NCBI GenBank assembly: GCA_026646875.1
Contig: JAPKHL010000005.1
Coordinates: 24,912 to 88,911, forward strand
Source of the DNA: Rhodocyclaceae bacterium
GTDB taxonomy: Bacteria > Pseudomonadota > Gammaproteobacteria > Burkholderiales > Rhodocyclaceae
DNA: 64,000 nt
Direction: 5' to 3'
Position 1 is the stretch's first letter. Each line of letters opens with the position of its first letter. The translations under genes were made by a program, and so were the position numbers. Below are positions 6,477 through 56,341 of the stretch, piece by piece. The notes beneath the pieces are model-generated. The model saw only the letters and a list, made by a program, of their open reading frames with translations, ran no database searches and was not told the origin of the DNA.

Positions 6477-6762
6477 GATAGGACTGCTCCACCTCGGCCT
6501 TCAGCTTCTGGCTGGCATGGAAAGTGACGACACGCCGCGCGGTGATGGGGATTTCCTCGCCGGTCTTGGGATTGCGGCCAGGCCGCTGGGGTTTGTCGCG
6601 CAGCTGGAAATTGCCGAAACCGGAGAGCTTGACGCCGTCGCCCCGCTCCAGGGCATTGCGGATTTCCTCGAAGAACGCTTCGACCATATCCTTGGCCTCG
6701 CGCTTGTTGAGGCCGACCTTCTCGAACAACAGATCTGCGAGCTCAGCTTTGGTAAGCGTCAT
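6460..6762 (-). CDS. ihfA: integration host factor subunit alpha
   Basis: 100 aa. [28 protein letters not shown]...[12 protein letters not shown] is the IHF/HU fold. Confidence 0.95.
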
Positions 6763-6774
6763 TGTTCTTCCTTG

Positions 6775-9150
6775 TCAGACGCGAAGCTGCGCCGCGAATG
6801 CCTGCTGCAAGTAGGCAACCAGCTGCTGCATGGCGGCGTCGACTTCCGCATCTTGCAAAGTTCTTTGAGTATCTTGCATAACTATACGGAAAGCAAGACT
6901 TTTCTTCCCGGTCCCGACGCCTTTGCCGGTATAAAGATCGAACAGGCGGATGTCCTGCACGAGGGCCGGGCGATTGGCGGTCATGCCGTCGATCAGTGCC
7001 TGCAGGGAGGTTTCGTGCGGGACGACGATGGCCAGATCGCGGATCGCCGGCGGCTGCCGGGAGACCTCGGCGTACTGCGGCAAGCGGGCGCGCGTGAGCG
7101 GATCGAGTTCGAGCTCGAAGAGTACCGGCGCCAGCGGCAGGTCGTATTTCTGGACCCATTGCGGGTGCAGCTCGCCGAGGAATCCCGCCGGGGCGCCGTC
7201 GATCAGCACGCGGGCGCTGCGTCCGGGGTGCAGCGCCGGGTGGGTGGCCGGCTCGAAACGCAGCTCGGCGGGTGCGAGCAGGGCCTCGAGGTCGCCCTTG
7301 ACGTCGAAGAAGTCGACGTTGCGCGCCGGAGCCCCCCATTGTTCGGGCAGAGCGCTGCCGTAGGCGAGCGCGGCGAGCATCCAGGGCTGCCGGAAGCCAG
7401 CCACCGGGCCGCTCGCGGCGGCACGGGTGAAGCAGCGGCCGGTTTCGAAGACGCGCACGCGGTTCTGGCGGCGCTTGAGATTGGTGGCCACGTTGGCGAC
7501 CAGGCCGCCGATCAGCGTCGAGCGCATGACCGCCAGCTGGCTGGCGATCGGGTTGGCCAGACGGATCGGCGCGGCATTGCCGCCAAAATCGGTTTCCCAG
7601 GCTTCCTCGACGAAGGCGAAGTTGACCACTTCCTGATAGCCGCGCCCGGCGACGATCCGCCGGATGCGCGCCAGCGGCCGCGCATCCTCGGTCTGCGGCA
7701 GCATCGACAGGGCGCCCTGCGGCGCCGGGGCGGGGATGTTGTCGTAGCCGTGCAGGCGGGCGATTTCCTCGATCAGGTCTTCCTCGATTTCAATATCGAA
7801 ACGGTAGCTCGGCGGCGTGACGACGAAATCCTCGCCCTCGCGGACGAAGGTCAGGCCCAGGCGGGTAAATAGCTCTGCGATGCGCGCGCTGTCGAAGGCG
7901 AGACCGAGCACCCTGGCGACGCGCGACGGACGCAGGCGGACGGGAGTGCGCTCGGGCAGGGCGGCCTGCGCCTCGCTGACCGGGCCGGCCTGGCCGCCGC
8001 AGATCTCGAGAACAAGCCGGGTGGCGCGCTCAAGTGCGCGGCGGGTGCCGCCGAAATCGACGCCGCGCTCGAAGCGGTGCGAAGCATCGGAGACAAAGCC
8101 GTAGCGGCGGGCCCGGCCGGCGATCGCGCCGGGGGCGAAAAAGGCGGCTTCAAGAAAGAGCTCGCGGGTTTCGAGGGTGATGCCGCTCTCCTCGCCGCCC
8201 ATGATGCCGCCCATCGCCACCGGGCGCCGGTCGTCGGCGATCAGCAGCACGTCGTCCTCGAGCGTCAGGGTCTGCTCGTTGAGCAGCAGGATCTGCTCGC
8301 CGGCGCGGGCCATGCGCGGCACGATGGCGCCTTCGAGCCGGGCGTTGTCGAAGGCGTGCAGGGGCTGGCCGAGCTCGAGCATTACATAGTTGGTGATGTC
8401 GACCAGCGCGGAAATCGGGCGGATGCCGGAACGCTCGAGCCGGCGCTGCATCCAGAGCGGGGTCGGAGCCCTTGCATCGACCCCGGCGATGACGCGTCCG
8501 CAGTAGCGCGGGCAGGCGTGCGGGGCCTCGAGGCGGATGTCGCGGCGCGTTTCGATGGTTACCGGGGCTTCACCGACTTCGGGATAGCGCGCCGGGGCGC
8601 CGGTCAGTGCCGCCACTTCGCGGGCAATCCCGGTGAGCGACAGGCAGTCGGCACGGTTCGGAGTGAGCTTCAGGGTCAGCAGGCGGTCATCGAGATCGAG
8701 ATACTCGCGAATGCCCTGCCCGACCGGAGCGTCGGCCGGCAGCACGAGCAGGCCGGAGGCATCCTCGGCGATGCCGAGTTCCTTGGCCGAGCAGAGCATG
8801 CCCGAGGATTCGACACCGCGCACCTTGGCCACCTTGATGGTGAAATCGCCGGGCAGCTTCGCGCCGGGCAGCGCGCAGGGCACCTTGAGGCCGGCAGCGA
8901 CGTTCGGCGCACCGCAGACGATCTGCTGCGGGGCGGCGGCGCCGATATCGACCTTGCAGACGTTGAGGCGGTCGGCATCGGGATGCTTCACGACCTCGAG
9001 CACCTGCGCGACGATCACGTCGTTGAACGGCGGGGCAACGGTGTCTTCCTCCTCGACCTCCAGGCCGGCCATGGTCAGGAGATGCGAGAATTCCGCGCCC
9101 GAAAGTTTCGGGTCGACGAAGGTGCGGAGCCAGGATTCCGAGAATTTCAT
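6775..9150 (-). CDS. pheT: phenylalanine--tRNA ligase beta subunit
   Basis: 791 aa. MKFSESWLR... is the canonical PheT N-terminus, and the gene is adjacent to pheS. Confidence 0.95.
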   Translation of the reverse strand: MKFSESWLRTFVDPKLSGAEFSHLLTMAGLEVEEEDTVAPPFNDVIVAQVLEVVKHPDADRLNVCKVDIGAAAPQQIVCGAPNVAAGLKVPCALPGAKLPGDFTIKVAKVRGVESSGMLCSAKELGIAEDASGLLVLPADAPVGQGIREYLDLDDRLLTLKLTPNRADCLSLTGIAREVAALTGAPARYPEVGEAPVTIETRRDIRLEAPHACPRYCGRVIAGVDARAPTPLWMQRRLERSGIRPISALVDITNYVMLELGQPLHAFDNARLEGAIVPRMARAGEQILLLNEQTLTLEDDVLLIADDRRPVAMGGIMGGEESGITLETRELFLEAAFFAPGAIAGRARRYGFVSDASHRFERGVDFGGTRRALERATRLVLEICGGQAGPVSEAQAALPERTPVRLRPSRVARVLGLAFDSARIAELFTRLGLTFVREGEDFVVTPPSYRFDIEIEEDLIEEIARLHGYDNIPAPAPQGALSMLPQTEDARPLARIRRIVAGRGYQEVVNFAFVEEAWETDFGGNAAPIRLANPIASQLAVMRSTLIGGLVANVATNLKRRQNRVRVFETGRCFTRAAASGPVAGFRQPWMLAALAYGSALPEQWGAPARNVDFFDVKGDLEALLAPAELRFEPATHPALHPGRSARVLIDGAPAGFLGELHPQWVQKYDLPLAPVLFELELDPLTRARLPQYAEVSRQPPAIRDLAIVVPHETSLQALIDGMTANRPALVQDIRLFDLYTGKGVGTGKKSLAFRIVMQDTQRTLQDAEVDAAMQQLVAYLQQAFAAQLRV

Positions 9151-35937: not shown

Positions 35938-36302
35938 GGGGGCGACCTGGCTTCGACGTGGGTTGCAAAGCAGCGCAGGGCATACCGAGGACCAGTGACC
36001 TCGTAAATCCATCTGGAAATCAATAAACGCCAACGACGAGCGTTTCGCTCTCGCCGCCTAAAGCGGCGTGACCGCTGCACTGACTGGTCCCTGGGTCAGG
36101 TGGGGCAACCCACGGCAGCGTCATTTACAGGGACTCGCCCTTGCCAGGGTCACTTTGGCCGGGGCTAAATCCAAGGTGACTCGCCAGAAGCAAGCCTGTT
36201 CGGCCGGCGTGCCAAGGTTAAAACCCAATTGACCGGACTAAGTATGTAGAACTGCCTGTAGAGGACTTGCGGACGGGGGTTCGATCCCCCCCGCCTCCAC
36301 CA
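35938..36302 (+). ncRNA. ssrA: tmRNA (SsrA)
   Basis: GGGGGCGACCTGGCTTCGACG 5' end and a tRNA-like 3' end GGACGGGGGTTCGATCCCCCCCGCCTCCACCA. The tag reading frame at 36029-36061 encodes ANDERFALAA*. Confidence 0.95.
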
Positions 36303-36310
36303 ATACCCAA

Positions 36311-36342
36311 AATCCCAACCCTCATCGGTTGGGATTTTTTTT
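36311..36342 (+). terminator. ssrA terminator
   Basis: AATCCCAACC-ctcatc-GGTTGGGATT followed by a T-run. Confidence 0.8.
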
Positions 36343-36563
36343 GCCCGTTCCCCCAGTGTTGGCGCGGTTTTCGGGCCTGGCCTCGCGAGCGCCACCCCTG
36401 CGAAGTCGGCGTTTTTGCCCCCGCCGACGCCTCTCTGTTCTCCGTTTTCTCTGGTGGCCACGCGAGCGTTCTCGAGGCCATTTCCTTTGCTGGCGCGGGT
36501 TTAGAGGCGGTCGGTTGTGGTTGGCAACTCCTGTAGCGGTGGCGACCGAGTGTCGAGAGGCCA

Positions 36564-36586
36564 CAAAAAAACCGCCCGCAGGCGGC
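36564..36586 (-). terminator. terminator of the recombinase operon
   Basis: Minus strand reads CCGCC-tgcg-GGCGG followed by TTTTTTT, 25 nt after the stop at 36611. Confidence 0.7.
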
Positions 36587-36610: not shown

Positions 36611-37084
36611 TCACCCGGGTGGCGCGAGCACGCGCATCTGGTCGCCCCAGGCATTGGGCCAGGGGCGGCGCATCACCTTCTCCAGCACGGCATCGGGCGA
36701 GCCAACCAGCCGTTCCACGACCTCCGGGGCCAGCAGCGTCAGCCGCATGACCCGGCGCACCTGTGTCACGTCCGTGCCTTCGGCCTCGGCGATCTCGGCT
36801 ACTGATGCCGCCCGCTGCTCATCCAGCAGGCGTTGCCAGTGGTGCGCCAGTCCGAGCGCCCGCATCAACGCGGTGTCCTGCGCGGCCGACCGGGCTTCCC
36901 GCTCCCGGGTGGCCTCGGACAGAAATTCCTGCGGCGCGTCCAAGGGCGTGATGACCTGCTTCTTCAGCCCCCGCTTCACCAGCGTCCAGGGCACGAAGGT
37001 TTCCAGTTGCACGCCGCCTGCCGGGTTCGGCAGTTGATAGGTGACCGGATCACCCTTGAACCGGCCCCGGTGCTTCTTGCTCAT
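36611..37084 (-). CDS. small recombinase-associated protein, paralog 2 (RLTLLAP motif, putative HTH)
   Basis: 157 aa. The ATGA overlaps the upstream gene. It shares ETFVPxT...IAxxEGxxxxxVxRxMRLTLLAPxxxExL with 37081..37452. Confidence 0.7.
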   Translation of the reverse strand: MSKKHRGRFKGDPVTYQLPNPAGGVQLETFVPWTLVKRGLKKQVITPLDAPQEFLSEATREREARSAAQDTALMRALGLAHHWQRLLDEQRAASVAEIAEAEGTDVTQVRRVMRLTLLAPEVVERLVGSPDAVLEKVMRRPWPNAWGDQMRVLAPPG

Positions 37085-37452
37085 GCGTCCTCCTCAAAGC
37101 GCTTCACGATCTGGCGTTGCGCCTCCCAATCCACCGGCAGCGGGTTGCGCTGGAACCAGATCAGGTTCATCCGGCGCGGCTGCCGCCCGGCCATCAGCAG
37201 TTCGAGGATGTCAGGCGCGAGCAGGGTCAGGCGCATCAGCTCGTTGGGCACCGAGGGGTGCAGTCCTTCGGTCCGGGCAATGTCTGACCCACTCTTCATC
37301 ACACCGGTGTCCACGAGGTGCTGCCAGTAGAAACCGCGTGCCACCCCCTCCAGCAGCGTCACATCGTGGACGTGACGGTCGTCGGCGGCCACGCGCCGCG
37401 CGCCCCGGCGACGAAATGTCAGGGGCACAAAGGTTTCCAGTGTGTCGTCCAT
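37081..37452 (-). CDS. small recombinase-associated protein, paralog 1 (RLTLLAP motif, putative HTH)
   Basis: The ATG at 37452 overlaps the recombinase stop (ATGA). 123 aa, MDDTLETFVPLTFRRRG... Confidence 0.7.
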   Translation of the reverse strand: MDDTLETFVPLTFRRRGARRVAADDRHVHDVTLLEGVARGFYWQHLVDTGVMKSGSDIARTEGLHPSVPNELMRLTLLAPDILELLMAGRQPRRMNLIWFQRNPLPVDWEAQRQIVKRFEEDA

Positions 37453-38831
37453 CAGGCTTCGACCTCCACCAGTTCCGCGCCGATGCCCCTCGGGGCGAAC
37501 TCGCCGATTAGGGCGTCCCAGCCCAGTTCCCGCCACTTCACCTTGATGCCCTGCACCTCGCCGACGTGGACGAGGTCGATGCGCTCGATCATCAGGTTGG
37601 CGATGCGGTGACGCTCGACCGGGAACAACTGATCCCACACGTCGTTGAGCCGTCCCATCGCCATCACCGTGGTGGCCTCGTCGATCTGGGCCCCATTGCG
37701 CTGGATGTGGCGCACCACCGATGCGATGGATTCCGGGCTGGTCAGCACCGTGCGGATCTGGGCCACCACCGCCGCCTCGATCTCAGGTGCAGGCAGGCGT
37801 TCGTAGCTCTTGCCCGGTGCTCCGAACCGGCTTTCCGACTTGGACACGTAGTAGTGGTACTTGCGCCCGTTCTTGCGCGAGTAGGTCGGGTACATCCGTT
37901 CGCCCGAGGGGGCGTACAGCAGGCCGCGCAGCAAGGCGTCGGTGCGCGACCGGATCTTGGTCTCCACCGACCGGGCGTGCCCATCCCTGGCCAGCACCGT
38001 GTGGACCTTGTCCCAAAGCTCCTGGTCGATGATCGGCGGGTGAGCGCCGGGGTACCAGTTCCCCTTGTGCGATAGCTCCCCCAGGTAGATGCGGTTGCGC
38101 AGCAGCTTGTGCAGGTACTTCTTGTCGATGCGTGTGCCGCTGCGGGTCTGGCCCTCCTGCGTCGTCCAGGCCTTGGTCGTGATGCCGTCGGCAGTGAGGC
38201 TGACGGCGATCTGGGTCGGCGAGCCGATGGTCAGCATCTCCTCGAAGATGCGACGCACCACCGCCGCCTCGGCCTCGTTGATGACCAACAGGCGGTTGTC
38301 GACGTCGTAACCCAGGGGCGGGACGCCGCCCATCCACATCCCCTTGCGCTTGGCGGCGGCAATCTTGTCGCGGATGCGCTCGCCGGTGACCTCGCGCTCA
38401 AACTGGGCGAAGGACAGCAGGACGTTGAGCATCAGCCGACCCATCGAGGTGGTGGTGTTGAACTGCTGGGTGACCGACACAAAGGACACCCCGTGGCGTT
38501 CGAACACTTCAACCATCTTGGAGAAGTCGGCCAAGCTGCGCGTCAGGCGGTCGATCTTGTAGACCACCACGATGTCGATCTGGCCGCGCTCGATGTCCGC
38601 CATCAGGCGTTTCAGCCCCGGCCGATCCGTGTTGCCGCCAGAGAAGCCGGGGTCGTCGTAGTCGTCGGCCACCGGAATCCAGCCCTCGGATCGCTGACTG
38701 GCGACGTAGGCGTGGCCCGCCTCCTTCTGCGCGTCGATGGAGTTGAACTCCTGGTCAAGCCGTTCATCCGAGGACACCCGGCAGTAGACGGCGCAGCGCT
38801 TGCGGGCCTTGGTGCTGGCAATCTCGCTCAT
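37452..38831 (-). CDS. large serine recombinase (resolvase/invertase N-domain + recombinase domain)
   Basis: 459 aa. CAVYCRVSSDE is the catalytic Ser region. VVYKIDRLTRS and a recombinase domain follow. Confidence 0.9.
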   Translation of the reverse strand: MSEIASTKARKRCAVYCRVSSDERLDQEFNSIDAQKEAGHAYVASQRSEGWIPVADDYDDPGFSGGNTDRPGLKRLMADIERGQIDIVVVYKIDRLTRSLADFSKMVEVFERHGVSFVSVTQQFNTTTSMGRLMLNVLLSFAQFEREVTGERIRDKIAAAKRKGMWMGGVPPLGYDVDNRLLVINEAEAAVVRRIFEEMLTIGSPTQIAVSLTADGITTKAWTTQEGQTRSGTRIDKKYLHKLLRNRIYLGELSHKGNWYPGAHPPIIDQELWDKVHTVLARDGHARSVETKIRSRTDALLRGLLYAPSGERMYPTYSRKNGRKYHYYVSKSESRFGAPGKSYERLPAPEIEAAVVAQIRTVLTSPESIASVVRHIQRNGAQIDEATTVMAMGRLNDVWDQLFPVERHRIANLMIERIDLVHVGEVQGIKVKWRELGWDALIGEFAPRGIGAELVEVEA

Positions 38832-39280
38832 CGCGCACCTCCCTTGCTCAGGCCAAAGAACAGCGGCCCCGACCAGTGCGCGCCCGTGATGTGGCGGGCC
38901 ACCGCCGTCAGGCTCTTGAAGTTGCGCCCCTGGTACTCAAACAGCCCCTCGGCGGTGACTGTCACCCGATGTTCGCGCTCGCCCCATTCGCGCAGCAGGA
39001 TCGTGCCCGGCGCGAAATCGAACTCGCGCGGCTTGGCCCGCAGCTTGATCTTGGAGTGTTTTGCGCCGATGGCTTCCAGGCGCTGCTTGGTCTCGGGCGC
39101 AAGGCCACCGAAGGCTTCCTCCTGCAGCTTGTAGGCGAGACGGGACTCGACGTGCGTGCGGTTGGGGTAGTCCGGGCGACGCGGGAAATACCGATCCCAC
39201 ACCGTCCAGAGCTCGGACATCGGCAGGCAGGCCAGCTCCGCAATCCGCGCGGCGACGGATGCTTGTTTCTCGTTCATCAC
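38828..39280 (-). CDS. DUF2924-like protein
   Basis: 150 aa whose stop overlaps the recombinase start. The ...FKSLTAVARHITGAHWSGPLFFGL tail is typical of the family found upstream of serine recombinases. Confidence 0.75.
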   Translation of the reverse strand: MMNEKQASVAARIAELACLPMSELWTVWDRYFPRRPDYPNRTHVESRLAYKLQEEAFGGLAPETKQRLEAIGAKHSKIKLRAKPREFDFAPGTILLREWGEREHRVTVTAEGLFEYQGRNFKSLTAVARHITGAHWSGPLFFGLSKGGAR

Positions 39281-39305
39281 AACTTCTCCTCTTGATAGGG
39301 GGTTG

Positions 39306-39337
39306 TATGAACGCGCTGGTCGGGCAGGAAGCCAAGG
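39306..39337 (-). promoter_or_regulatory. copy D of the 32-nt conserved motif (AACGCGCTG-N9-GAAGCCAAG on the plus strand)
   Basis: Lies 25 nt upstream of the DUF2924 start. Aligns without gaps to the copies at 54762, 55422 and 55723. Confidence 0.7.
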
Positions 39338-39584
39338 CCAACTTCTCTCTGTTTTGGTTCATCCGCAGCAAGGGTGCGGACGATGGCAGCCGCAAGGATG
39401 GCGGCGATTTCGCCAGCACGGGCGCTGGCGCTCATCTCCGTGGGAGATGCGAGTTCGAGGTTCTTCATGACGGCTCCGAGGAATTGCAACCGTCAGGGAT
39501 AGTGAGCCTGATCTTCCGAAGCGGATGGCAACGCAGGGTAATCGTGACCGCCAGTCATGAATCCATTGCGCGTTAACGAAACAG

Positions 39585-39613
39585 TTGACAGAGTGCCTCT
39601 TGGCCTCTACCAT
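39585..39613 (+). promoter_or_regulatory. sigma70-like promoter of the XRE/ImmA operon
   Basis: TTGACA-17 nt-TACCAT, 35 nt upstream of the ATG at 39649. It is bracketed by the inverted GTTAACGA(A)ACAG repeats at 39572-39584 and 39614-39624. Confidence 0.6.
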
Positions 39614-39619
39614 CTGTCG

Positions 39620-39637
39620 TTAACTAATCACGCAATC
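39620..39637 (+). promoter_or_regulatory. operator-like box 1 (TTAACTAATCACGCAATC)
   Basis: 15/18 identical to the box at 40797-40814. Lies between the -10 element and the XRE start codon. Confidence 0.6.
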
Positions 39638-39648
39638 AGGTCACAACC

Positions 39649-39927
39649 ATGCCCTTTGGAGCATTCATCCGCAAGAAGCGCGAAGAGAAAGGCATTCAGA
39701 TGAATGACTTTGCGCGCCAGCTGGAGATATCACCCGCCTACTGGTCGCGCATCGAGCGCGACATGGAAAAACCGCCCAAGGACGAGCTGATCCGTAAGGC
39801 GGCCGAGATCCTTGGAATCAGCGCCGACGACGCTTTCGTCGAGGCCAGTCGCCTGCCTCCCGACATCCGCGATGATGTTGGCAACCTGGTTCGGATGTAC
39901 CGCCGGAACGTGACGGAGAAGAAGTGA
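39649..39927 (+). CDS. XRE-family helix-turn-helix regulator
   Basis: 92 aa. IRKKREEKGIQMNDFARQLEISPAYWSRIERD is an HTH_3-type motif. Confidence 0.88.
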   Translation: MPFGAFIRKKREEKGIQMNDFARQLEISPAYWSRIERDMEKPPKDELIRKAAEILGISADDAFVEASRLPPDIRDDVGNLVRMYRRNVTEKK

Positions 39928-40740
39928 ATGGCGGTACTGACTCTCGACTACCGGTGCTGCGACCGGAAGCGCCCGCTGTACATCAAGCACATTGAGGTCG
40001 AACGCATCGCCGCGACCGCGCGCCAGCAACTGGTCGCGGACAGCATCGATGCCGTTTCTTTCGACGCGCTGCGGCAGATCTCCGGCCTGAAGATCAACGG
40101 CATCGACTTCGCGCTGGAGGTCAGCACCGACTACTCCGTGCATGACGAGCAAGGCAACCACGTCTTCGGCGTCTGTGAATTCGACCCCGCTATGCCCGAC
40201 GCCGCGATGGTGTCCATCTCGCCCGTGGGTGAGAGTCTCAGCGAACTGCTGGCCCTCAGCACCTTGGCCCACGAGCTGGGCCACGCCGTGTTCGACGCCC
40301 CCGGCTGGGTTGTTCAGGGCAGCAAGGGTCCCGGGTTGTTCGATGACATCGAACCGACGATGCAACGCGCCTACCGCACCACGACGCCGGACAGCGACCA
40401 CTTGTCCAAGTCACTATCTGCGAAGCCAACGACGGAAGAACACTTCGCCGAGCTGCGCGCCAACGAGTTCATGGGCTCCTTGCTGGTGCCTCGCCAACGC
40501 ATCATCGCCGCCGTCGAAGAGCTTGCGCCCCAGCACGACATCACCATCCATCGCCATCCTTCAACCGATCCCGACCACCCCGGCACGGCCCTGCGCATCA
40601 AGGCGAACGGCGACCTGGGAGTCTTGGAGATGGATCGCTTCGAGAAAGCCTTGGCGACGCGCTTCGGTGTCAATCCACGGTTCATCCAAGTACGTCTGAA
40701 CCGTTATGGCCTGACCACTCAGGAGGCCACGATGCGCTGA
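39928..40740 (+). CDS. ImmA/IrrE-family zinc metallopeptidase
   Basis: 270 aa starting directly after the XRE stop, with HELGH and a downstream EFMGSLLVP motif. Confidence 0.8.
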   Translation: MAVLTLDYRCCDRKRPLYIKHIEVERIAATARQQLVADSIDAVSFDALRQISGLKINGIDFALEVSTDYSVHDEQGNHVFGVCEFDPAMPDAAMVSISPVGESLSELLALSTLAHELGHAVFDAPGWVVQGSKGPGLFDDIEPTMQRAYRTTTPDSDHLSKSLSAKPTTEEHFAELRANEFMGSLLVPRQRIIAAVEELAPQHDITIHRHPSTDPDHPGTALRIKANGDLGVLEMDRFEKALATRFGVNPRFIQVRLNRYGLTTQEATMR

Positions 40741-40761
40741 CCAGGATCTACCGCCTGTGGA

Positions 40762-40785
40762 GCCGACCTCGCGTCGGCGTTTTTT
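40762..40785 (+). terminator. rho-independent terminator after the ImmA-like gene
   Basis: GCCGAC-ctcgc-GTCGGC followed by GTTTTTT. Confidence 0.7.
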
Positions 40786-40796
40786 GAATCATTCGA

Positions 40797-40814
40797 TTAA
40801 CTGTTCGCGCAATC
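40797..40814 (+). promoter_or_regulatory. operator-like box 2 (TTAACTGTTCGCGCAATC)
   Basis: 15/18 identical to box 1. Lies 27 nt upstream of the ATG at 40841. Confidence 0.6.
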
Positions 40815-40840
40815 GCGCACTTTGTCAAAGGAACTTGCCT

Positions 40841-42265
40841 ATGCCAGCTGACCAAGCCTCAACAACAAAGAAAAGCACCAAGTTGGCGACGAGCCAGCCT
40901 GCAGCAAAACGTGCGCGTGAGCATCGATCCGATGAGGGCGCAAACATCCTGCCGAACGCAGAGAACTTCGTCAGCCTCGTGCGCAAGGTCGCGCGCCCCG
41001 GGCTGCTGGTGGATCTGCTCGAACGCGCCAGCGCGACGGCACTGCCGGAGTTGAAGGCATTGGCAGAAGCGGCCAAGGGCAAGTTGCCAGTCGAGTCGCG
41101 TCAGGCACTCTTTCATGCTGTCGGCAAATTGCCGGTGGCCGCCCAGTACAGCATCGAGTGTGCCGCCGAGCGAGTGATGCTCCTTGACGATGACTACGGG
41201 GCACAGGCCGTCTTGTCCCTGCTCAACGAAGAGCGTGCCGACGATGCCGCCATGCTGGCTGCGCCCAGCGACCGCTACAGCCGCGCCCTGTATCTGCACC
41301 TCTTGCAGGACTTTCCAGCGCAAGGCGCCCGCCGCGACGAACGCTTCGATCAGGCTGAGCATCTGCAAGTGATGCATCGTCAGTGGAAAAGCGACCACTA
41401 CTCCAGCCACTACCTGGGCCCCAAGGGCGTCGTGCCGAAGAGTGGGATCGACGTTCAAGAGGTGTTGCGCACACGCATTGCCGAACTGTTCCCGAAGGTG
41501 CCGAAGGATCAAATCCTGATCGAGCAATTCACGCGCCGAGATCTGTCATGCGAACAGGGTGATGACGATGATTGCGAAGCCGGTCAGTCGGCGCTGTTGC
41601 ACACGCTGACGGCGACCTTCAATGGCAAGACGGCCACGTTCCAGCAAGTGGCGAACGGGCATGTCGTCGACCACGAGGAACCCGCTGCGATGTCGGCCCG
41701 CTTCTCGTGGGAGCCGGATACTGGCTCACTCAGCGTGTTCTGCGAAGAACGGGAGGCGCGCCGCGAGCTGGCCACCGTCTTCCGTGATGTCGCGTTGGCG
41801 CACGAAGGCCAGATCGAGGACATGCCCATGCGGCAGTTCGACCTGCTCGGCTTTGCGACCTCCAAGATGCTGGACCGCCTCAAACGTGACCGGGTCGCAG
41901 GCATCGACGATATCTCGATCCTGCAGATCACGGTGGCCAAGCCGTTCGAGCAGACCTCAGAGTACGGCGGACGTGATGTGGTGCGGCAACTCTCCAGCAA
42001 GATGCAAATCACCCGCGACCGGCGCGACGGCCGCAACATCTATCAGGTTGCTTATGAGGACTATTGCGCCGAAGACCTGAGTCAGTACGCGCTTGTGCAG
42101 GTGAAGTTGGTCATGAGGATGTCCAAGACGCCACACCGCAAGGCGCACAACGTCGCTGTCCAGATCACCGCGCCGAACGGGCTGAACGACAAGAGCAGGA
42201 CCGACGACGACCGCAAGCGCGTGCAGGAACAGCTCATCAAGATCGGCGTGCTGAGCCAGTTCTGA
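40841..42265 (+). CDS. hypothetical protein (474 aa), no recognisable family
   Basis: ATG with an AAGGA RBS. The long ORF has normal, non-shadow composition. The N-terminus is K/A/S-rich and an acidic patch CEQGDDDDCEAG is present. Confidence 0.75.
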   Translation: MPADQASTTKKSTKLATSQPAAKRAREHRSDEGANILPNAENFVSLVRKVARPGLLVDLLERASATALPELKALAEAAKGKLPVESRQALFHAVGKLPVAAQYSIECAAERVMLLDDDYGAQAVLSLLNEERADDAAMLAAPSDRYSRALYLHLLQDFPAQGARRDERFDQAEHLQVMHRQWKSDHYSSHYLGPKGVVPKSGIDVQEVLRTRIAELFPKVPKDQILIEQFTRRDLSCEQGDDDDCEAGQSALLHTLTATFNGKTATFQQVANGHVVDHEEPAAMSARFSWEPDTGSLSVFCEEREARRELATVFRDVALAHEGQIEDMPMRQFDLLGFATSKMLDRLKRDRVAGIDDISILQITVAKPFEQTSEYGGRDVVRQLSSKMQITRDRRDGRNIYQVAYEDYCAEDLSQYALVQVKLVMRMSKTPHRKAHNVAVQITAPNGLNDKSRTDDDRKRVQEQLIKIGVLSQF

Positions 42266-42276
42266 GGAGGACGCCG

Positions 42277-43215
42277 ATGACGTCGCCGCATTTGAGCTTT
42301 TTCCTCGCGCTGGACAACCTCCCACGACTCGACGAATCAGTGCTGGCCGACAGGCTCGGGCGCGACCACCAGCAGTTTCTTCAGCGGCGCTGGATCGTGC
42401 CCGCAGGCCATCTCACCCATGTGATGGTGCCGTTTCTCGATTCCGAACAGGAAGTCGAAATCGATGTCGATGAGGACGCCGGTCGCTACAGCTACTGCAG
42501 TCCGCTGAACGGCAGAACCATCGTCCAACCGCTGGCGGGGATTGCCCTCTATTCCATCCAGATGGATTCCTGGCTCGCAGATCTGGCGGCGCTGATCGGC
42601 ATTGAGGAGCGGCGACGCTCGAGCCAGATCTGCCGGACACCGAATCACCTGTGGCACCTCGGTGAGCAGCGAATCGCTGGCACGCACGATTTCGCACCGG
42701 TGTTCGTTGGCCGAGCATGGTCACGCGCACCGCAGGACAAGATCACCGCAGTCCTTGCCGACACCGTGTGGCCGCGTGGTGGCGTTGTTCTGTGCCCAAG
42801 GCGAACCAATGCTTCGCTGCCACGTGACCACACGCTGCGCGGCTTCGATGAGTTCGTCCGCGTGACCGATGGCGCAGATGCGTTCGACACCGATGCCTTT
42901 GATCGTGTCCTGCGCGGCTACGCAACCAACGTGGGTGAGCCGGAACCGGTGCAGTTCTTCAATGGCAAGCGGCTCAAGCTCCCGCACATGGCGTCGTCCA
43001 TCGAACTCACCGAAGCGCGCGCCAAGATCATCAAGCTGATGTGGGGGACCGAAGGAAGTGCCCCGCCCGTGATGTCGTGGAAAGAGGTGAATGGTTCCGT
43101 CACCGTCAACACCGGCTTCCAATCCTTCGACGATGCCTTCGGCGACAAAGTAGCGCGTGAGGAGGTGATCGAGTGGGTTTCGCACGGTAAATACCGGGTT
43201 AGGCGCAACACATAA
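42277..43215 (+). CDS. hypothetical protein (312 aa), no recognisable family
   Basis: ATG 11 nt after the upstream stop, preceded by GAGGAGG. Confidence 0.75.
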   Translation: MTSPHLSFFLALDNLPRLDESVLADRLGRDHQQFLQRRWIVPAGHLTHVMVPFLDSEQEVEIDVDEDAGRYSYCSPLNGRTIVQPLAGIALYSIQMDSWLADLAALIGIEERRRSSQICRTPNHLWHLGEQRIAGTHDFAPVFVGRAWSRAPQDKITAVLADTVWPRGGVVLCPRRTNASLPRDHTLRGFDEFVRVTDGADAFDTDAFDRVLRGYATNVGEPEPVQFFNGKRLKLPHMASSIELTEARAKIIKLMWGTEGSAPPVMSWKEVNGSVTVNTGFQSFDDAFGDKVAREEVIEWVSHGKYRVRRNT

Positions 43216-43300
43216 ACGCCCCCATAAATCGAGCCAGACACGGCCCATAAACCCGTGCGGAGACTGCGATGTGCCCATTTCATACAGGAGGCACATCGAA

Positions 43301-43558
43301 ATGCAAACCTACTTCACCAACGCAACATCTGGCCAGACTCCGGCCAAACCCGGTGCGCCACAGCGCATCGCCCTTGACGAAAACGAGCTGGCCATCCGCT
43401 GGGGGCTTTCCGTCAAGACCCTGCGCCGCTGGCGGCAGGAACAACTCGGCCCGGTCTTCTGCAAGCTCGGTGCCCGCGTCACCTACCTGATCTCCGAGGT
43501 CGAAGCCTTCGAGCGTCGCGTTTCGCGGCACTCGACCTTCACTCGTGCATACCAGTGA
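43301..43558 (+). CDS. small HTH DNA-binding protein (AlpA/excisionase-like)
   Basis: LAIRWGLSVKTLRRWRQEQLGPVFCKLGARVTY is an HTH_17-type motif. AGGAGG RBS. Confidence 0.7.
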   Translation: MQTYFTNATSGQTPAKPGAPQRIALDENELAIRWGLSVKTLRRWRQEQLGPVFCKLGARVTYLISEVEAFERRVSRHSTFTRAYQ

Positions 43559-51689: not shown

Positions 51690-53135
51690 TTGGCGGGTTT
51701 TGCTTTTGGGACTTCCACTTTGAACACGCTCAACGTCGAGTACCGCAAGGTCGAGGCGCTGATTCCCTACGCCCGCAATCCGCGCACGCACGCCGAAAGC
51801 CAGATCGCCAAGATCGCGGCCAGCATCGTCGAGTACGGCTGGACGAACCCGATCCTCGTCGACGGCGACAACGGCATCATCGCCGGGCACGGGCGTTTGG
51901 CCGCTGCGCGCAAGCTCGGCCTGGATCAGGTGCCGGTGATCGAACTGGCCCATCTAACCGTCGCGCAGAAGCGGGCACTCGTGATCGCCGACAACCGGCT
52001 GGCACTGGATGCGGGCTGGGACGAAGAAATGCTCGCCCTGGAACTGGCTGAGCTGTCCGACGCGGGATACGACCTCGCTCTGACCGGCTTCGAGGATGCC
52101 GAGATCGAGGCACTGCTCACCAGTGCGGCGGCCGTCGCAGATGATGAATCAGAGTCCGAAGCCGACGAGCCTGACGCGGCTGACGACGTGCCGGAAGCAC
52201 CCGTCGTGGCAGTGTCCCGGCCGGGCGATGTCTGGGCGATTGGCCCGCACCGCCTGATCTGTGGTGACGCCACCGACCGGGACGTGGTCGCTGCGCTGAT
52301 GCAGGGTGAAGTCTCTCGCCTGTGCTTCACCTCGCCGCCCTACGGCAACCAGCGCGACTACACCTCGGGCGGCATCTCCGATTGGGACGGCCTGATGCGC
52401 GGCGTGTTCGCACACCTGCCGATGGCAGGCGACGGTCAGGTGTTGGTCAACCTGGGCCTCATCCACCGCGACAACGAGGTCATCTCGTATTGGGACGCTT
52501 GGCTGGGCTGGATGCGCCAGCAGGGCTGGCGGCGCTTTGCGTGGTACGTCTGGGACCAGGGGCCGGGGATGCCCGGCGACTGGGCAGGCCGCTTCGCGCC
52601 GAGCTTCGAGTTCGTCTTCCACTTCAACCGGGAGAGCCGTAAGCCGAACAAGATCGTCCCCTGCAAGCACGCAGGCCAGGAATCCCACCTGCGCGCCGAC
52701 GGGTCGTCCACCGCGATGCGCGGCAAGGATGGCGAGGTGGGCGGCTGGACGCACAAGGGGCTGCCGACGCAGGACACGCGCATCCCCGACAGCGTGATCC
52801 GCGTGATGCGCCACAAGGGCAAGATCGGTCAGGACATCGACCACCCCGCCGTGTTCCCGGTGGCGCTGCCGGAGTTCGTCATCGAGGCCTATACGGATGC
52901 GGGCGACATCGTGTTCGAACCCTTCGGCGGCAGCGGCACAACGATGCTGGCCGCCGAGCGCACCGGTCGGATCTGCCGCAGCGTGGAAATCGCCCCGCAG
53001 TACGTGGACGTCGCCATCAAACGCTTCCAGCAGAATCATCCCGGGGTGCCGATCACCCTGATCGCCACCGGCCAGTCCTTCGAGCAAGTAGTCGCCGAGC
53101 GCGCCGCCACCGTTAATGCCGAGGTGCTGACATGA
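51690..53135 (+). CDS. ParB-like N-terminal domain fused to a DNA methyltransferase (N6A/N4C type), copy 1
   Basis: ParB box GHGRLAAARKLG and catalytic TSPPY motif. No ATG is available; candidate TTG starts are at 51690 and 51720. Confidence 0.85.
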   Translation: MAGFAFGTSTLNTLNVEYRKVEALIPYARNPRTHAESQIAKIAASIVEYGWTNPILVDGDNGIIAGHGRLAAARKLGLDQVPVIELAHLTVAQKRALVIADNRLALDAGWDEEMLALELAELSDAGYDLALTGFEDAEIEALLTSAAAVADDESESEADEPDAADDVPEAPVVAVSRPGDVWAIGPHRLICGDATDRDVVAALMQGEVSRLCFTSPPYGNQRDYTSGGISDWDGLMRGVFAHLPMAGDGQVLVNLGLIHRDNEVISYWDAWLGWMRQQGWRRFAWYVWDQGPGMPGDWAGRFAPSFEFVFHFNRESRKPNKIVPCKHAGQESHLRADGSSTAMRGKDGEVGGWTHKGLPTQDTRIPDSVIRVMRHKGKIGQDIDHPAVFPVALPEFVIEAYTDAGDIVFEPFGGSGTTMLAAERTGRICRSVEIAPQYVDVAIKRFQQNHPGVPITLIATGQSFEQVVAERAATVNAEVLT

Positions 53136-54394
53136 GCTGGCTGGCCGACAAGATCGAGCAATGGCCGACTGCCAAGCTGCTGCCCTACGCCCGCAACGCG
53201 CGCACCCATTCCGAGGAGCAGGTGGCGCAGATCGCCGCCAGCATCGCCGAGTTCGGATTCACCAATCCGATCCTGGCGGGCAGCGACGGCATCATCGTCG
53301 CAGGCCACGGTCGTCTCGCCGCCGCCCAGAAGCTGGGTCTGGAACGGGTACCGGTGGTCGTGCTCGATCACCTGACGCCGACCCAGCGCCGGGCTCTGGT
53401 CATTGCGGACAACCGCATCGCAGAGAACGCAGGCTGGGACGATGCGATGCTAAGGATCGAACTGGAAGCCTTACAACTCGAAGGCTTCGATCTGGACATC
53501 ACCGGCTTCGACGCCGACGCTCTGGCCGAACTGATCGCAGGAGACGAGCCGGACAACGAGGGTCAGACGGATGAGGATGCGGTGCCCGAGGTCAGCGAGA
53601 CACCCATCTCGCGTCCGGGCGATCTCTGGATCATGGGCCAGCACCGACTGCTGTGCGGCGACTCGACCGTGGCCGAGAGCTACGAGCGGATGATGCAGGG
53701 CGACCTGGCGGACATGGTCTTCACCGACCCGCCGTATAACGTGAACTACGCCAACAGTGCCAAGGACAAGATGCGCGGCAAGGATCGCGCGATCCTGAAC
53801 GACAACCTGGGTGACGGCTTCTACGACTTCCTGCTGGCAGCGCTGACGCCCACCGTCAGGCATTGCCGGGGCGGTATCTATGTGGCGATGTCCTCCAGCG
53901 AACTGGATGTGCTGCAGGCCGCCTTCCGCGCCGCCGGTGGCAAATGGTCGACCTTCATCATCTGGGCCAAGAACACCTTCACCCTGGGGCGCGCCGACTA
54001 CCAGCGCCAGTACGAGCCGATCCTCTACGGATGGCCCGAGGGGGCGACACGCCACTGGTGTGGTGACCGCGACCAGGGGGACGTCTGGAACATCAAGAAG
54101 CCGCAGAAGAACGACCTGCACCCGACGATGAAGCCGGTGGAGTTGGTCGAGCGTGCTATCCGCAATTCGAGCCGACCCGGCAACGTGGTTCTCGACCCGT
54201 TCGGTGGCTCTGGAACCACGCTGATTGCTGCCGAGAAGTCAGGCCGCTCTGCGCGACTGATCGAACTCGACCCGAAGTACGTGGATGTGATCGTGCGCCG
54301 GTGGGAGGAGTTCACTGGTAAGCAGGCCACCCGCGAGGCGGATGGCGCGGTGCTTGATCAGGCGGCCAGCGATTCCTCGACGATCTCGCAGTGA
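53132..54394 (+). CDS. ParB-like N-terminal domain fused to a DNA methyltransferase, copy 2
   Basis: ParB box GHGRLAAAQKLG, DPPY motif and FGGSGTT SAM motif. The ATGA overlaps copy 1. Confidence 0.88.
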   Translation: MSWLADKIEQWPTAKLLPYARNARTHSEEQVAQIAASIAEFGFTNPILAGSDGIIVAGHGRLAAAQKLGLERVPVVVLDHLTPTQRRALVIADNRIAENAGWDDAMLRIELEALQLEGFDLDITGFDADALAELIAGDEPDNEGQTDEDAVPEVSETPISRPGDLWIMGQHRLLCGDSTVAESYERMMQGDLADMVFTDPPYNVNYANSAKDKMRGKDRAILNDNLGDGFYDFLLAALTPTVRHCRGGIYVAMSSSELDVLQAAFRAAGGKWSTFIIWAKNTFTLGRADYQRQYEPILYGWPEGATRHWCGDRDQGDVWNIKKPQKNDLHPTMKPVELVERAIRNSSRPGNVVLDPFGGSGTTLIAAEKSGRSARLIELDPKYVDVIVRRWEEFTGKQATREADGAVLDQAASDSSTISQ

Positions 54395-54726
54395 ATCACA
54401 AAGCCCGTCAGGTAAGGCAGGCCGCGCGGGATGCCGTATTGCTTGCTGGTTTGACGGCCAATCGTCCAGCCCATCCAACGCTGGGTGGCTGCGTTGATCG
54501 CGTCCGCCAGGGCCTTACCCTCGTAAAGCCCGTTCTGGACGTCGTCGGCAAAGTGGCGACCGTGGCGGCTGTCGAGGAAGACCCTGACCGATTCGAGCGG
54601 CTGGCTGGTGGCGTCCGAGATGGCGGCCATTGCCAGGGGCCAAGCCGTGCTGGCGTGTTCGTTCATCGTGCCCCAAAAGCCCCAGGCTTCGTTCTGGGTG
54701 GCGGGGATCTGCGTGGTGGTGTTCAT
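54358..54726 (-). CDS. hypothetical protein (122 aa)
   Basis: Has a GGAG RBS and is preceded by motif copy A. Its 3' end overlaps the methylase 3' end convergently by 37 nt. Confidence 0.6.
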   Translation of the reverse strand: MNTTTQIPATQNEAWGFWGTMNEHASTAWPLAMAAISDATSQPLESVRVFLDSRHGRHFADDVQNGLYEGKALADAINAATQRWMGWTIGRQTSKQYGIPRGLPYLTGFVIHCEIVEESLAA

Positions 54727-54761
54727 CTCTGGCTCCTTCGGGTTGATCGTTGCGACACCCG

Positions 54762-54793
54762 TAGTAACGCGCTGTTCGATTGAGAAGCCAAGC
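54762..54793 (-). promoter_or_regulatory. copy A of the 32-nt conserved motif
   Basis: TAGTAACGCGCTGTTCGATTGAGAAGCCAAGC, 35 nt upstream of the start at 54726. Confidence 0.7.
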
Positions 54794-54823
54794 GCCGCTT
54801 GGCCTCTTTCTCGATCATTCTGG

Positions 54824-55387
54824 TCAGGCGATGCGGTACACCCGCTCGCTGCCCTGCGGCTTTTCCGACACGATGGTCAGGCCCAGCTTCTTCTTGAAGG
54901 CCCCGGCAAAGGTGCCGCGCACTGTGTGTGCCTGCCAACCGGTGGCGGTGCAGATCTGGCCGATGGTTGCGCCTTCGGGGCGTTGCAGCATCCGGATCAC
55001 TTCGGCTTGCTTGCTGTTGTCGCGGGTGCGCGGCTTGGCCCACGTTGCTTCGGCGGCGGTTACGGCGGCTTCCAGTTCGGGATCGCTCGCGGCGGCTGGC
55101 CCGCCTTCAGCATTGGCGATGATCTGGTCGAGATTGGCTTCGAATTGACCGATGCCTGTCTTGTTCACGCCGGGGCGCGACATTCCCAGTGCGTCGTAGC
55201 CCTCGGCGGCGACGAACCAGTCGGTGCCGTCGGTGGTGATCAGGGCACGGTTGAACATCCCGTCGAGCACTTTCTTGCGCGCGCCGCCTTTGATGTTGTC
55301 GGGGAACCAGTCGATCTTGCCAGCGCTGGTGTTGATGGCCTTGGCCAGGATGGCGTGCTGGGCCGGGGTCAGGTTGGTGGTGGTCAT
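54824..55387 (-). CDS. DUF3489-like protein
   Basis: 187 aa. The C-terminal MLQRPEGATIGQICTATGWQAHTVRGTFAGAFKKKLGL...RVYRI is the DUF3489 signature. Confidence 0.7.
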   Translation of the reverse strand: MTTTNLTPAQHAILAKAINTSAGKIDWFPDNIKGGARKKVLDGMFNRALITTDGTDWFVAAEGYDALGMSRPGVNKTGIGQFEANLDQIIANAEGGPAAASDPELEAAVTAAEATWAKPRTRDNSKQAEVIRMLQRPEGATIGQICTATGWQAHTVRGTFAGAFKKKLGLTIVSEKPQGSERVYRIA

Positions 55388-55421
55388 GGGCTGCTCCTTC
55401 GGGGGTGGTGGATGACGATGT

Positions 55422-55453
55422 GATGAACGCGCTGTCAGGGACTGAAGCCAAGC
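55422..55453 (-). promoter_or_regulatory. copy B of the 32-nt conserved motif
   Basis: GATGAACGCGCTGTCAGGGACTGAAGCCAAGC, 34 nt upstream of the start at 55387. Confidence 0.7.
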
Positions 55454-55482
55454 GCTTTCTGCTTGGCTTGGCGGCTTTCCCG

Positions 55483-55689
55483 TCAGTCCTTGGCGATTTC
55501 CCCTTCCGTGGCCTTCGGGCTCGATGCGCCAAATTCGACGCCCGCCTTGAAGGCCGCTTCCAACGCGTCCTTGAGGCACCACACCGCCGTGTCGTGGAAG
55601 TCGAGGCTGTCGGCGTTGCGGGTTTGCAGGGTTTCGATGCCGAGATGCTTCTGGGCGATGAGTGTGAGGATGGTGTCGATCTGGCTCAT
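55483..55689 (-). CDS. hypothetical small protein (68 aa)
   Basis: ATG at 55689 with an AAAGGAAAA RBS region, preceded by motif copy C. Confidence 0.55.
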   Translation of the reverse strand: MSQIDTILTLIAQKHLGIETLQTRNADSLDFHDTAVWCLKDALEAAFKAGVEFGASSPKATEGEIAKD

Positions 55690-55722
55690 GGCGTTTTCCT
55701 TTCGGGATTGGTTGGCGTGACG

Positions 55723-55754
55723 TGATGAACGCGCTGTTCTCGATGGAAGCCAAG
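55723..55754 (-). promoter_or_regulatory. copy C of the 32-nt conserved motif
   Basis: GATGAACGCGCTGTTCTCGATGGAAGCCAAGC, 33 nt upstream of the start at 55689. Confidence 0.7.
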
Positions 55755-55795
55755 CTAAATCTGCGGACATGACGAACAAATGATTGAAGGTGACG

Positions 55796-56341
55796 ATGGG
55801 ACTCTCCATTCGCGCCTACGCGCGCCACCGTGGCGTGTCGCACGTGGCCGTGAAGAAGGCCATCGACACCGGGCGGATCACACCGCTGCCAGACGGCACG
55901 ATTGATCCGGATACCGCCGACGCGCAGTGGGCACAAAACACATTGCAACCCCGCAAGGCGGCAGCGCCGGAGAAGGTCAGTCCCTCGAAGGCGCGCGTAC
56001 TGCCCGAGCGTGAGGTGCCCGAACCCGGCACCCCACCGTTGTCGACGGGCGGGACATCGCTGCTACAGGCACGCACCGTCAACGAAGTGCTCAAAGCCCA
56101 GCTCAATAAGGTGGAGCTGGCGCACCGCAAGAAGGAACTGGTGGATCGGGCGCAGGCCGTGGCCCACGTGTTCAAACTTGCGCGCATCGAGCGCGACGCG
56201 TGGTTGAACTGGCCCGCGCGTATCTCGGGGCAGATGGCATCCACGCTCGGTGTCGATGCGCACCAGATGCACGTGGCCCTGGAGGCTGCCGTGCGCGAGC
56301 ACCTGATTGAGCTGGGCGAGCTGCGCCCGCGCGTGGATTGA
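55796..56341 (+). CDS. terminase small subunit
   Basis: N-terminal HTH (LSIRAYARHRGVSHVAVKKAIDTGRI). Lies directly upstream of, and overlaps, the large terminase gene. Confidence 0.75.
   Translation: MGLSIRAYARHRGVSHVAVKKAIDTGRITPLPDGTIDPDTADAQWAQNTLQPRKAAAPEKVSPSKARVLPEREVPEPGTPPLSTGGTSLLQARTVNEVLKAQLNKVELAHRKKELVDRAQAVAHVFKLARIERDAWLNWPARISGQMASTLGVDAHQMHVALEAAVREHLIELGELRPRVD

Follow-up and report, generated by a model that had tools for sequence, protein, structure and literature searches.

A repeated motif ahead of leftward prophage genes

The window analyzed here, meaning the whole 64-kb stretch (64,000 nucleotides [nt]) of contig JAPKHL010000005.1 from a Rhodocyclaceae bacterium, apparently holds a prophage like Acidithiobacillus phage AcaML1, integrated at or beside the transfer-messenger RNA (tmRNA) gene ssrA. 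Our subject is a bipartite motif, AACGCGCTG-N9-GAAGCCAAG, which matches the plus strand of the window exactly at four positions, 39310-39336, 54766-54792, 55426-55452, and 55728-55754 (copies A, B, C, and D, respectively). On the minus strand, which encodes the genes that follow, the motif reads CTTGGCTTC-N9-CAGCGCGTT and continues with CAT, or with ACT in the 54.8 kb copy. In our judgment, it is fairly likely to be the core of an ~40-bp, DNA-level promoter with a built-in operator, private to widespread AcaML1-like temperate phages.

Compared with the 4 exact matches seen, 100 dinucleotide-preserving shuffles gave an expectation of 0. A scan of the window that tolerated three mismatches added one unconvincing match, at 15147. 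The original prediction had described the motif as a gap-free 32-nt alignment and had called for a profile scan of the rest of the prophage; an nhmmer search for weaker copies throughout the window, with a profile of 431 instances, returned the same four (E values of 1e-9 to 1e-13) and nothing further, the next match having an E value of 0.23. The 32-nt alignment does begin 4 to 5 nt before the 27-nt core, but the conserved unit is really ~40 nt long. So delimited, and always on the minus strand, the units span 39298-39337 (A), 54754-54793 (B, the ACT variant), 55414-55453 (C), and 55716-55755 (D), with predicted transcription starts at ~39300, ~54756, ~55416, and ~55718, respectively.

The genes 3' of the copies are those originally named, and Pfam assigns the 68-amino-acid (aa) open reading frame (ORF) among them to DUF6900. 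Copy D lies 38 nt 5' of this DUF6900 gene (55483-55689, minus strand), the first cassette of a leftward array, and is separated by 41 nt from the start codon of terS (55796-56341, plus strand), the divergent terminase small-subunit gene. Copy C lies 38 nt 5' of a gene for a 187-aa DUF3489 protein (54824-55387, minus strand), and copy B lies 39 nt 5' of a gene for a 122-aa protein that matches phrog_8020 and has no Pfam family (54358-54726, minus strand). These three small leftward genes form an island between two methylase genes and terS. Copy A is 29 nt from the ATG of a DUF2924 gene (149 aa, 38828-39277, minus strand) that is followed by a serine recombinase gene. Each minus-strand ATG is preceded by a Shine-Dalgarno sequence. 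All copies lie upstream of start codons, as had been claimed, at a distance of 29 to 39 nt when measured from the end of the core.

Copy A differs in one respect from the original description, which was right to place it ahead of the DUF2924/recombinase operon: it is not intergenic, and it falls inside the 3' end of a conserved 63-codon ORF (39277-39468, minus strand), similar to AcaML1 Gp5, which reads the motif as ...LGFLPDQRVH... and whose stop codon overlaps the DUF2924 ATG. The DUF2924 protein is Gp4-like. Farther along are a large, Gp3-like serine recombinase with Resolvase, Recombinase, and Zn_ribbon_recom domains (37452-38831), a probable Gp2-like "small subunit" of ~124 aa assigned by position only (37081-37455), and a Gp1-like 157-aa protein matching phrog_14161 (36611-37084), all on the minus strand. 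The whole leftward operon, 36611-39468 (L321, 313-3176), matches AcaML1 gp1 to gp5 gene for gene. As a serine-recombinase module, five genes are unusually elaborate, and the accessory proteins are all uncharacterized.

Conservation, geometry, and space around the unit

Exact matches to the 18 fixed bases occur at at least 120 viral-contig loci and at least 118 loci of species-representative genomes; with equal base frequencies assumed, ~17 matches would be expected by chance in the 596-Gb genome collection. Some 15 to 20 matches, in agreement with this expectation, are single, lack both CAT and a downstream ORF, and lie in coding DNA of unrelated genomes. The original prediction had named absence from related elements and frequent occurrence in coding DNA elsewhere as grounds for abandoning it. 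What we found is the exact motif in over 230 loci, viral and genomic, from several bacterial classes, with conservation in hundreds of related elements at a set distance from start codons, and an occurrence in unrelated coding DNA at about chance level. The remaining hosts are mainly Betaproteobacteria and Gammaproteobacteria, with some Alphaproteobacteria, Acidithiobacillia, and "Candidatus Nitrospira defluvii." Two to five exact copies, all on the same strand and spaced 270 to 2,565 nt apart (median, 472), are present at 94 of the 238 loci from these two scans, and a start codon lies 29 to 46 nt downstream in 346 of 392 unique instances, with a mode of 37 to 39 nt. A sample chosen independently of the motif, in which loci were fetched via the 122-aa protein (the best 80 of 533 species genomes), contained 223 copies that match exactly on the gene strand; another 22 differ at one base, and very few are more divergent. 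Mismatches in these loci cluster at positions 8 and 18, where the first C of CTTGGCTTC is position 0 of the unit. Copies per locus range from one to six.

In the phage collection, AcaML1 is the only cultured relative, accompanied by unverified Ralstonia prophage records. It carries one copy inside gp5 and three in the gp27-32 cluster. The GenBank gene calls for AcaML1 (L239, JX507079) clash with the motif, since the annotated Gp29 and Gp30 (6376-6756 and 6760-7122) run over copies. A DUF6900 homologue encoded on the minus strand at ~8177-7950 has gone unannotated beneath the annotated "gpNu1" gene product Gp33 (7950-8448), and the AcaML1 homologue of the window terS is Gp23 (2230-2757).

The extended logo of 374 unique instances reads G-CTTGGCTT(C)-N5-c-(G)AA-(C)AGCGCGTT-CAT. 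The gap between CTTGGCTT and AGCGCGTT is 11 nt in 585 instances, 10 nt in 2, and never any other length. When base frequencies are weighted equally over 33 downstream gene clusters, pyrimidines occupy position 35 in 100% and position 37 in 98%, a purine stands at position 36 in 92%, position 38 is C in 75%, and positions -8 to -4 are A rich (46 to 61% A) in DNA of ~65% GC. Taking the purine at 36 as +1 places T29 at -7, GTTCAT (24-29) at -12 to -7, and TTGGCT (1-6) at -35 to -30, with a 17-bp spacer, and puts the A tract at -44 to -40, the position of the proximal UP subsite. This predicted layout is that of a promoter as a bacterial RNA polymerase holoenzyme would cover it. The -35 box resembles that of a sigma70 promoter, in that TTGGCT agrees with TTGACA at 4 of 6 positions and its TTG is invariant. 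The -10 box does not: compared with TATAAT, GTTCAT has an invariant T at -7, but there is an invariant T at -11 and a G at -12. The original prediction had likewise taken TTGGCT as a -35, which stands; the 18-nt spacer and TTCATC that it paired with this box give way to a best register with a 17-nt spacer, GTTCAT, and a pyrimidine/purine (Y/R) start 7 nt downstream. It was also right that a block within the spacer goes unexplained by sigma70 contacts, since AGCGCG, at -17 to -12, is invariant across the logo, and (C)AGCGC, at the end of the spacer, is nearly so. Because of this block and the invariant T at -11, efficient use by host RNA polymerase with sigma70 alone is unlikely. A scan across the cassette cluster for a consensus sigma70 promoter detected none.

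Other known signals were fitted and set aside. Sigma54 promoters have GG and GC dinucleotides 10 nt apart (TGGCAC-N5-TTGC). The motif has TGGC at 2-5, but the expected GC reads GA (G15, 72%; A16, 87%), and the invariant block would fall downstream of -12. Fitted by hand against the sigma32 consensus, the distance from CTTG to CAT is 4 to 5 nt too long. A sigmaE or extracytoplasmic function (ECF) promoter, also fitted by hand, would have GAAC (15-18) as -35 and GTC (36-38) as -10; the geometry fits, but the invariant block is left in the spacer. None of these consensus sequences accounts for the motif. A GAAC-N5-GTTC palindrome in box 2 is lost in the ACT variant and in distant relatives.

A clear sigma70 signal does exist in the prophage. 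A near-consensus promoter, TTGACA-17-TACCAT (39585-39613, plus strand), precedes the HTH_3 gene of the rightward early operon, so the motif belongs to a distinct class of signal. Palindromic CGTTAAC repeats at 39571-39583 and 39618-39630 bracket this early promoter and are likely the operators of an early switch. The first of the repeats is GCGCGTTAAC, and GCGCGTT is common to it and to box 2 of the motif.

The space around the unit bears on whether it initiates transcription or only binds a regulator. If it were an operator only, occupied by a repressor or other regulator (DUF3489, DUF2924, or the prophage repressor, for example) downstream of separate, unrecognized promoters, and if, like a stoperator, it blocked or modulated the transcription that reaches each gene, its asymmetry, strict conservation, and single orientation relative to transcription would follow naturally, as would the AGCGCG block without sigma70 contacts and the poor -10 position. 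Separate promoters are, however, hard to accommodate. The first copy of each array is only 41 to 53 nt from the divergent terS ATG, and this stretch includes the terS ribosome-binding site; across subfamilies, it holds no conserved promoter-like hexamers. In Ralstonia phage YO164_3 (L320, 2726-4961), which has six copies in 2.3 kb, two of them on the opposite strand, and in viral contigs L030 and L096, outward-facing pairs stand back to back 33 nt apart, toward divergent genes, and leave separate promoters no room; no convergent pair was found among the loci examined. The A-rich tract, TTG, T-7, and the Y/R pattern also fit promoter geometry. We therefore regard an operator without a promoter of its own as unlikely, whereas the short divergent region and the back-to-back pairs argue for a DNA-level promoter/operator.

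The same geometry bears on a role in RNA. A leader bound by a protein or the ribosome could control translation, processing, or stability of each cistron, as the original prediction had allowed. Such a signal would suit the tightly constrained distance to the start codon, the position of the motif between cistrons of an apparent operon, and the hairpins adjacent to ~20% of copies. These hairpins arise because 68 of 356 instances have box 1 repeated in inverted orientation (GAAGCCAAG) at 5 or 9 nt upstream, just past the stop codon of the preceding gene. The hairpin with a GCCAAG arm that had been noted in the window does exist, at the 54.8 kb and 55.4 kb copies and not at the 39.3 kb copy. At copy B, an inverted repeat, GCCAAGCG/CGCTTGGC (54787-54803), overlaps box 1 and forms a terminator-like hairpin between the DUF3489 and 122-aa genes; at copy C, GCCAAGC...GCTTGGC (55446-55467) overlaps box 1 in a hairpin between the DUF6900 and DUF3489 genes. 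The hairpins of copies B and C are stable (-29 and -25 kcal/mol), but for copies A and D folding is no better than that of shuffles, and no structure shared by the four copies was revealed. A search for covariation by mutual information over 587 instances gave signals between neighboring columns only and no Watson-Crick covariation; the signals reflect gene-family-specific leaders, that is, lineage, rather than base pairs. An Rfam scan of the window from 36 to 64 kb (E ≤ 1), a search that had been proposed along with the leader idea, found the tmRNA gene only and nothing at the motif. Moreover, the Y/R step is fixed relative to the motif and not to the ATG, and the length from motif to Shine-Dalgarno sequence varies. 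A leader would need a promoter upstream of each copy, for which there is no room, and at divergent pairs and in the short terS region transcription would have to start inside the neighboring motif or gene. These findings favor a DNA-level signal, and we consider an mRNA-level leader quite unlikely.

The copy B hairpin also scores as a terminator on the plus strand, and a conserved T-rich tail, CTCTTTCTCG, follows it on that strand (54787-54813). The hairpin may be a bidirectional terminator that could also stop rightward transcripts antisense to the 122-aa gene.

Cassettes, a candidate reader, and the prophage setting

The 346 ORFs downstream of the motif fall into 38 protein clusters, led by DUF3489 (74 members), the 122-aa family (69), DUF6900 (53), DUF2924 (48), and a 119-aa family (25), with many small orphans. 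None of the small orphans tested received a Pfam or defense-system assignment, and PADLOC gave no matches for the cassette proteins. Among 126 loci with terS and a methylase on either side, the array measures 647 to 4,672 nt and has up to six copies. In seven of these, the interval, probably mis-bounded, contains neither the motif nor cluster genes. The 119 complete clusters that remain all have DUF3489, 108 have the 122-aa gene, and 92 have DUF6900. The extra genes of larger arrays are inserted between two copies of a ~75-nt, motif-containing segment with ~83% identity by pairwise alignment. For instance, positions 21-1248 and 1174-1800 of the window query both align to L253 around a 423-nt insertion, and duplicated motif segments (query 1174-1248) flank the cassettes that L253, L276, L044, and L064 have in addition to those of the window.

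Such junctions could suggest that the motif is a site-specific recombination site at which a multisubunit serine recombinase captures and excises cassettes in the manner of an integron. More than 30 unrelated small-gene cassettes are bounded by the motif, inserted cassettes are flanked by copies, and the identical motif precedes the recombinase operon. Serine-recombinase sites show dyad symmetry around a central dinucleotide. The motif has no such symmetry, its fixed distance and orientation to start codons indicate expression, and 16 kb separate the array from the recombinase genes; duplicated segments such as those at the junctions are what homologous recombination would give. This explanation seems to us very unlikely.

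Relatives, mainly alphaproteobacterial, were fetched via DUF2924 homologues of ~45% identity. These have either a small ORF followed by DUF2924, the serine recombinase, and the 157-aa gene, or DUF3489 followed by DUF2924 and the recombinase, with genes that overlap at TGATG. The homologous site in these relatives holds a bipartite sequence that has diverged but keeps the N9 spacing, such as CTCGACTTC-N9-CAGAGCGGTCAT. Noncoding versions 5' of DUF3489 or DUF2924 have CTTGACT, GTTGACT, or (C/G)TTGATG as box 1, which is closer to TTGACA, and (C/G)AGAGCGT...T as box 2, at unchanged spacing. By this comparison, the predicted signal is an old component of the DUF3489/DUF2924/serine-recombinase module, one that AcaML1-like phages fixed in a single exact form and copied before other genes.

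Because copy A is read as protein, conservation could be a coding by-product of the C terminus of the small ORF, or else the result of chance or recent duplication, with no function of the motif itself. The small ORF that precedes DUF2924 has at least four divergent subfamilies in which the motif is indeed translated, as ...LGFxxxQRVH..., and the alphaproteobacterial coding stretch drifts like codons. Copies B, C, and D and most others are noncoding, however, with stop codons in or beside the motif; 18 to 25 bases are identical before 38 unrelated gene clusters whose flanks and N9 differ; and CAT never becomes CAC in the relatives, even where GC content at third codon positions (GC3) exceeds 80%. 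The noncoding copies have already largely refuted this possibility, which we hold to be extremely improbable.

What would read the signal is suggested by the cassette genes themselves. If the reader is encoded by the element, the winged-helix protein DUF3489 is the best candidate, as it is universal in the clusters, its own gene bears the motif, and in other elements it is translationally coupled, in one operon, to DUF2924 and the serine recombinase. In the AlphaFold model, only its C-terminal domain is confident, a winged helix with a predicted local distance difference test (pLDDT) score of ~90, for which Foldseek returned ArsR, MarR, and TFE-like neighbors; the N-terminal domain, modeled with low confidence, gives only faint hints of a winged helix. 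Many database DUF3489 proteins (P0003, P0024, P0033, P0041, P0052, and others) are 193 or 208 aa long, not 187; their annotated starts are shifted upstream, apparently across the motif. Other possible readers are DUF2924, the 63-aa ORF product, the very conserved 122-aa protein, and the HTH_3 regulator. In a bolder version, which we judge unlikely, the two-domain DUF3489 protein would recognize the motif as a dedicated bipartite factor and behave like a private sigma factor or activator for a small regulon made up of the integration genes and the accessory cassettes, and the unit would be the cassette exchange point of a phage-borne platform. Among solved structures, PDB sequence searches with DUF2924, the 122-aa protein, and DUF3489 turned up nothing meaningfully related.

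Relatives of the 122-aa protein are encoded in 533 species genomes, with 84 to 97% aa identity in the closest 80. This level of identity, among prophages of Burkholderiales, Xanthomonadales, Rhodocyclales, Ectothiorhodospira, and Nitrospira, far exceeds that of the neighboring DUF3489 protein, and few accessory genes of phages would be expected to show it. Its AlphaFold model (pLDDT, 57) was too poor for a structure search.

We propose that each copy gives the gene or operon downstream its own transcription start. The A-rich tract at -8 to -4 would resemble a proximal UP element, TTGGCT would serve as the -35, and GTTCAT would occupy the -10 position across a 17-bp spacer; transcription would begin at the pyrimidine-purine-pyrimidine step at 35-37 and yield a leader of ~30 nt that holds the Shine-Dalgarno sequence. 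An element-encoded DNA-binding protein would activate or gate the site. One signal would then drive both the DUF2924/serine-recombinase operon, from a start inside the small ORF, and the leftward accessory array, so that integration functions and cassette genes would make up one regulon. As a side effect, the repeated identical unit of 40 to 75 bp would be a substrate for recombination that inserts, deletes, and swaps cassettes of motif plus small gene. The element-specific promoter/operator put forward in the original prediction, tying the recombinase operon to accessory genes, is supported by this comparative evidence, and its 5'-leader alternative is not. The support comes from conservation in hundreds of elements at a fixed start-codon distance, from divergent regions in which the motif fills the only available promoter space, and from the single operon that DUF3489, DUF2924, and the serine recombinase form in distant relatives.

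Several observations weigh against a promoter with a private reader. Initiation, the start sites in this phage family, and the identity and sign of the regulator are predictions from sequence. Without the key A at -11, GTTCAT would require a helper factor or an alternative sigma, and none of the prophage genes in the window was found to be sigma-like. The link between DUF3489 binding and the motif is circumstantial. Invariance across hosts of different classes is unusual if a fast-evolving phage protein is the reader, and such exactness is easier to understand if a conserved host surface, that of RNA polymerase, supplied most of the contacts. All three back-to-back pairs are mutually homologous and represent one evolutionary event, and the fixed start-codon distance would equally suit an mRNA-level signal. 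Finally, the codon-like drift of the coding stretch in alphaproteobacterial relatives (a free position 2 and synonymous CAA/CAG and CGC/CGT changes) means that, in the DUF2924 context, the encoded peptide accounts for part of the conservation.

The remainder of the prophage reads rightward. An HTH_3 regulator gene and an M78 peptidase-like gene (39649-40740) are followed by replication genes for AAA_24, a D5-type primase, and a RuvC-like resolvase, and terminase and structural genes start at 55796. Downstream of the HTH_3/M78 pair, 40757-43555 has a third-position GC content below that of the rest of the prophage and may be a foreign insert (moron); its 502-aa ORF (40757-42265) has no Pfam, PHROG, or PADLOC match. 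Two tandem ParB_N-fused N6/N4 DNA methyltransferase genes (51690-54394, plus strand) correspond to the AcaML1 pair Gp24 and Gp25, and the second shares 37 nt (54358-54394) with the 3' end of the 122-aa gene, which is convergent with it. At the left, ssrA (36000-36302, plus strand) ends ~300 nt from the last gene of the integration operon (36611-37084), and a weak "permuted tmRNA" match at 36258-36572, just 3' of ssrA, may be a duplicated attachment-site fragment. This ssrA-adjacent prophage uses a serine, not a tyrosine, recombinase.

Relation to known systems

This prophage family is very common, as judged from the 533 species-level genomes and from thousands of metagenome protein clusters, yet it is little studied, and AcaML1 is the only cultured member described. 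No description of the motif was found in the searchable literature under the motif string, the DUF names, or AcaML1-like phages. The motif can be used as a marker for finding AcaML1-like prophages and for correcting gene starts. It also defines a ready-made putative regulon, integration module plus cassettes, for studying the integration decision of serine-recombinase phages, and it suggests a testable role for three domains of unknown function, DUF3489, DUF2924, and DUF6900. The 40-bp unit itself is a candidate broad-host-range, factor-dependent promoter.

Integron arrays resemble the cassettes in that small, unrelated genes of the same orientation are parted by a conserved repeat on an element that carries a site-specific recombinase. 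The attC sites of integrons are imperfect palindromes of 57 to 141 nt, located 3' of each cassette, with an R''-L''/L'-R' structure and a GTTRRRY core, and are used by the tyrosine integrase IntI. The motif, in contrast, has no overall dyad symmetry and lies 5' of genes, at 29 to 46 nt, and the recombinase is of the serine type. Should the reading with a private DUF3489 factor and an exchange point be true, it would amount to an integron-like capture-and-express system on temperate phages across several bacterial classes.

The stoperators of cluster A mycobacteriophages are, like the motif, asymmetric and strictly conserved; they occur many times per genome and are oriented with transcription. 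They are 13 to 14 bp long, number 20 to 35 per genome, are scattered in early and late operons, and stop elongation by binding the immunity repressor. The motif has one to six copies, spans ~40 bp, and sits at promoter positions.

An analogy may be found in the CII-activated lambda promoters pI, pRE, and paQ, several near-identical and intrinsically weak promoters that coordinate integrase with other leftward functions; pI lies within xis, much as copy A lies within the 63-codon ORF upstream of the recombinase. CII-dependent promoters have a TTGC-N6-TTGC direct repeat that straddles the -35. This repeat is absent from the motif logo, and no copy of the motif precedes a recognizable repressor gene.

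Promoter-early stem-loop (PeSL) cassettes are known from phages of the T4 type (Arbiol et al. 2010, PMC2839356; Comeau et al. 2014, PMC4122927). PeSLs are short conserved promoter units, often with a terminator-like stem-loop, that stand in one orientation before small, mostly orphan ORFs of a hypervariable region. The unit described here is likewise repeated before small ORFs of a hypervariable region, with a promoter activity that is predicted from its sequence, and in both systems insertion/deletion junctions between related phages lie in the repeated unit, as they do here in L253, L276, L044, and L064. The sequences themselves are unrelated, and the phages differ, being temperate and GC rich here and virulent T4-like myoviruses there. 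In addition, the -10 of our unit is noncanonical, a stem-loop accompanies only ~20% of copies, and the unit is predicted to drive the integration operon as well. With these differences, the motif is best described as a putative phage-specific repeated promoter of the PeSL-like mobile promoter cassette kind. If so, the idea that promoter units double as recombination joints, and so shuffle orphan genes, would extend beyond virulent T4-like phages to temperate ones.

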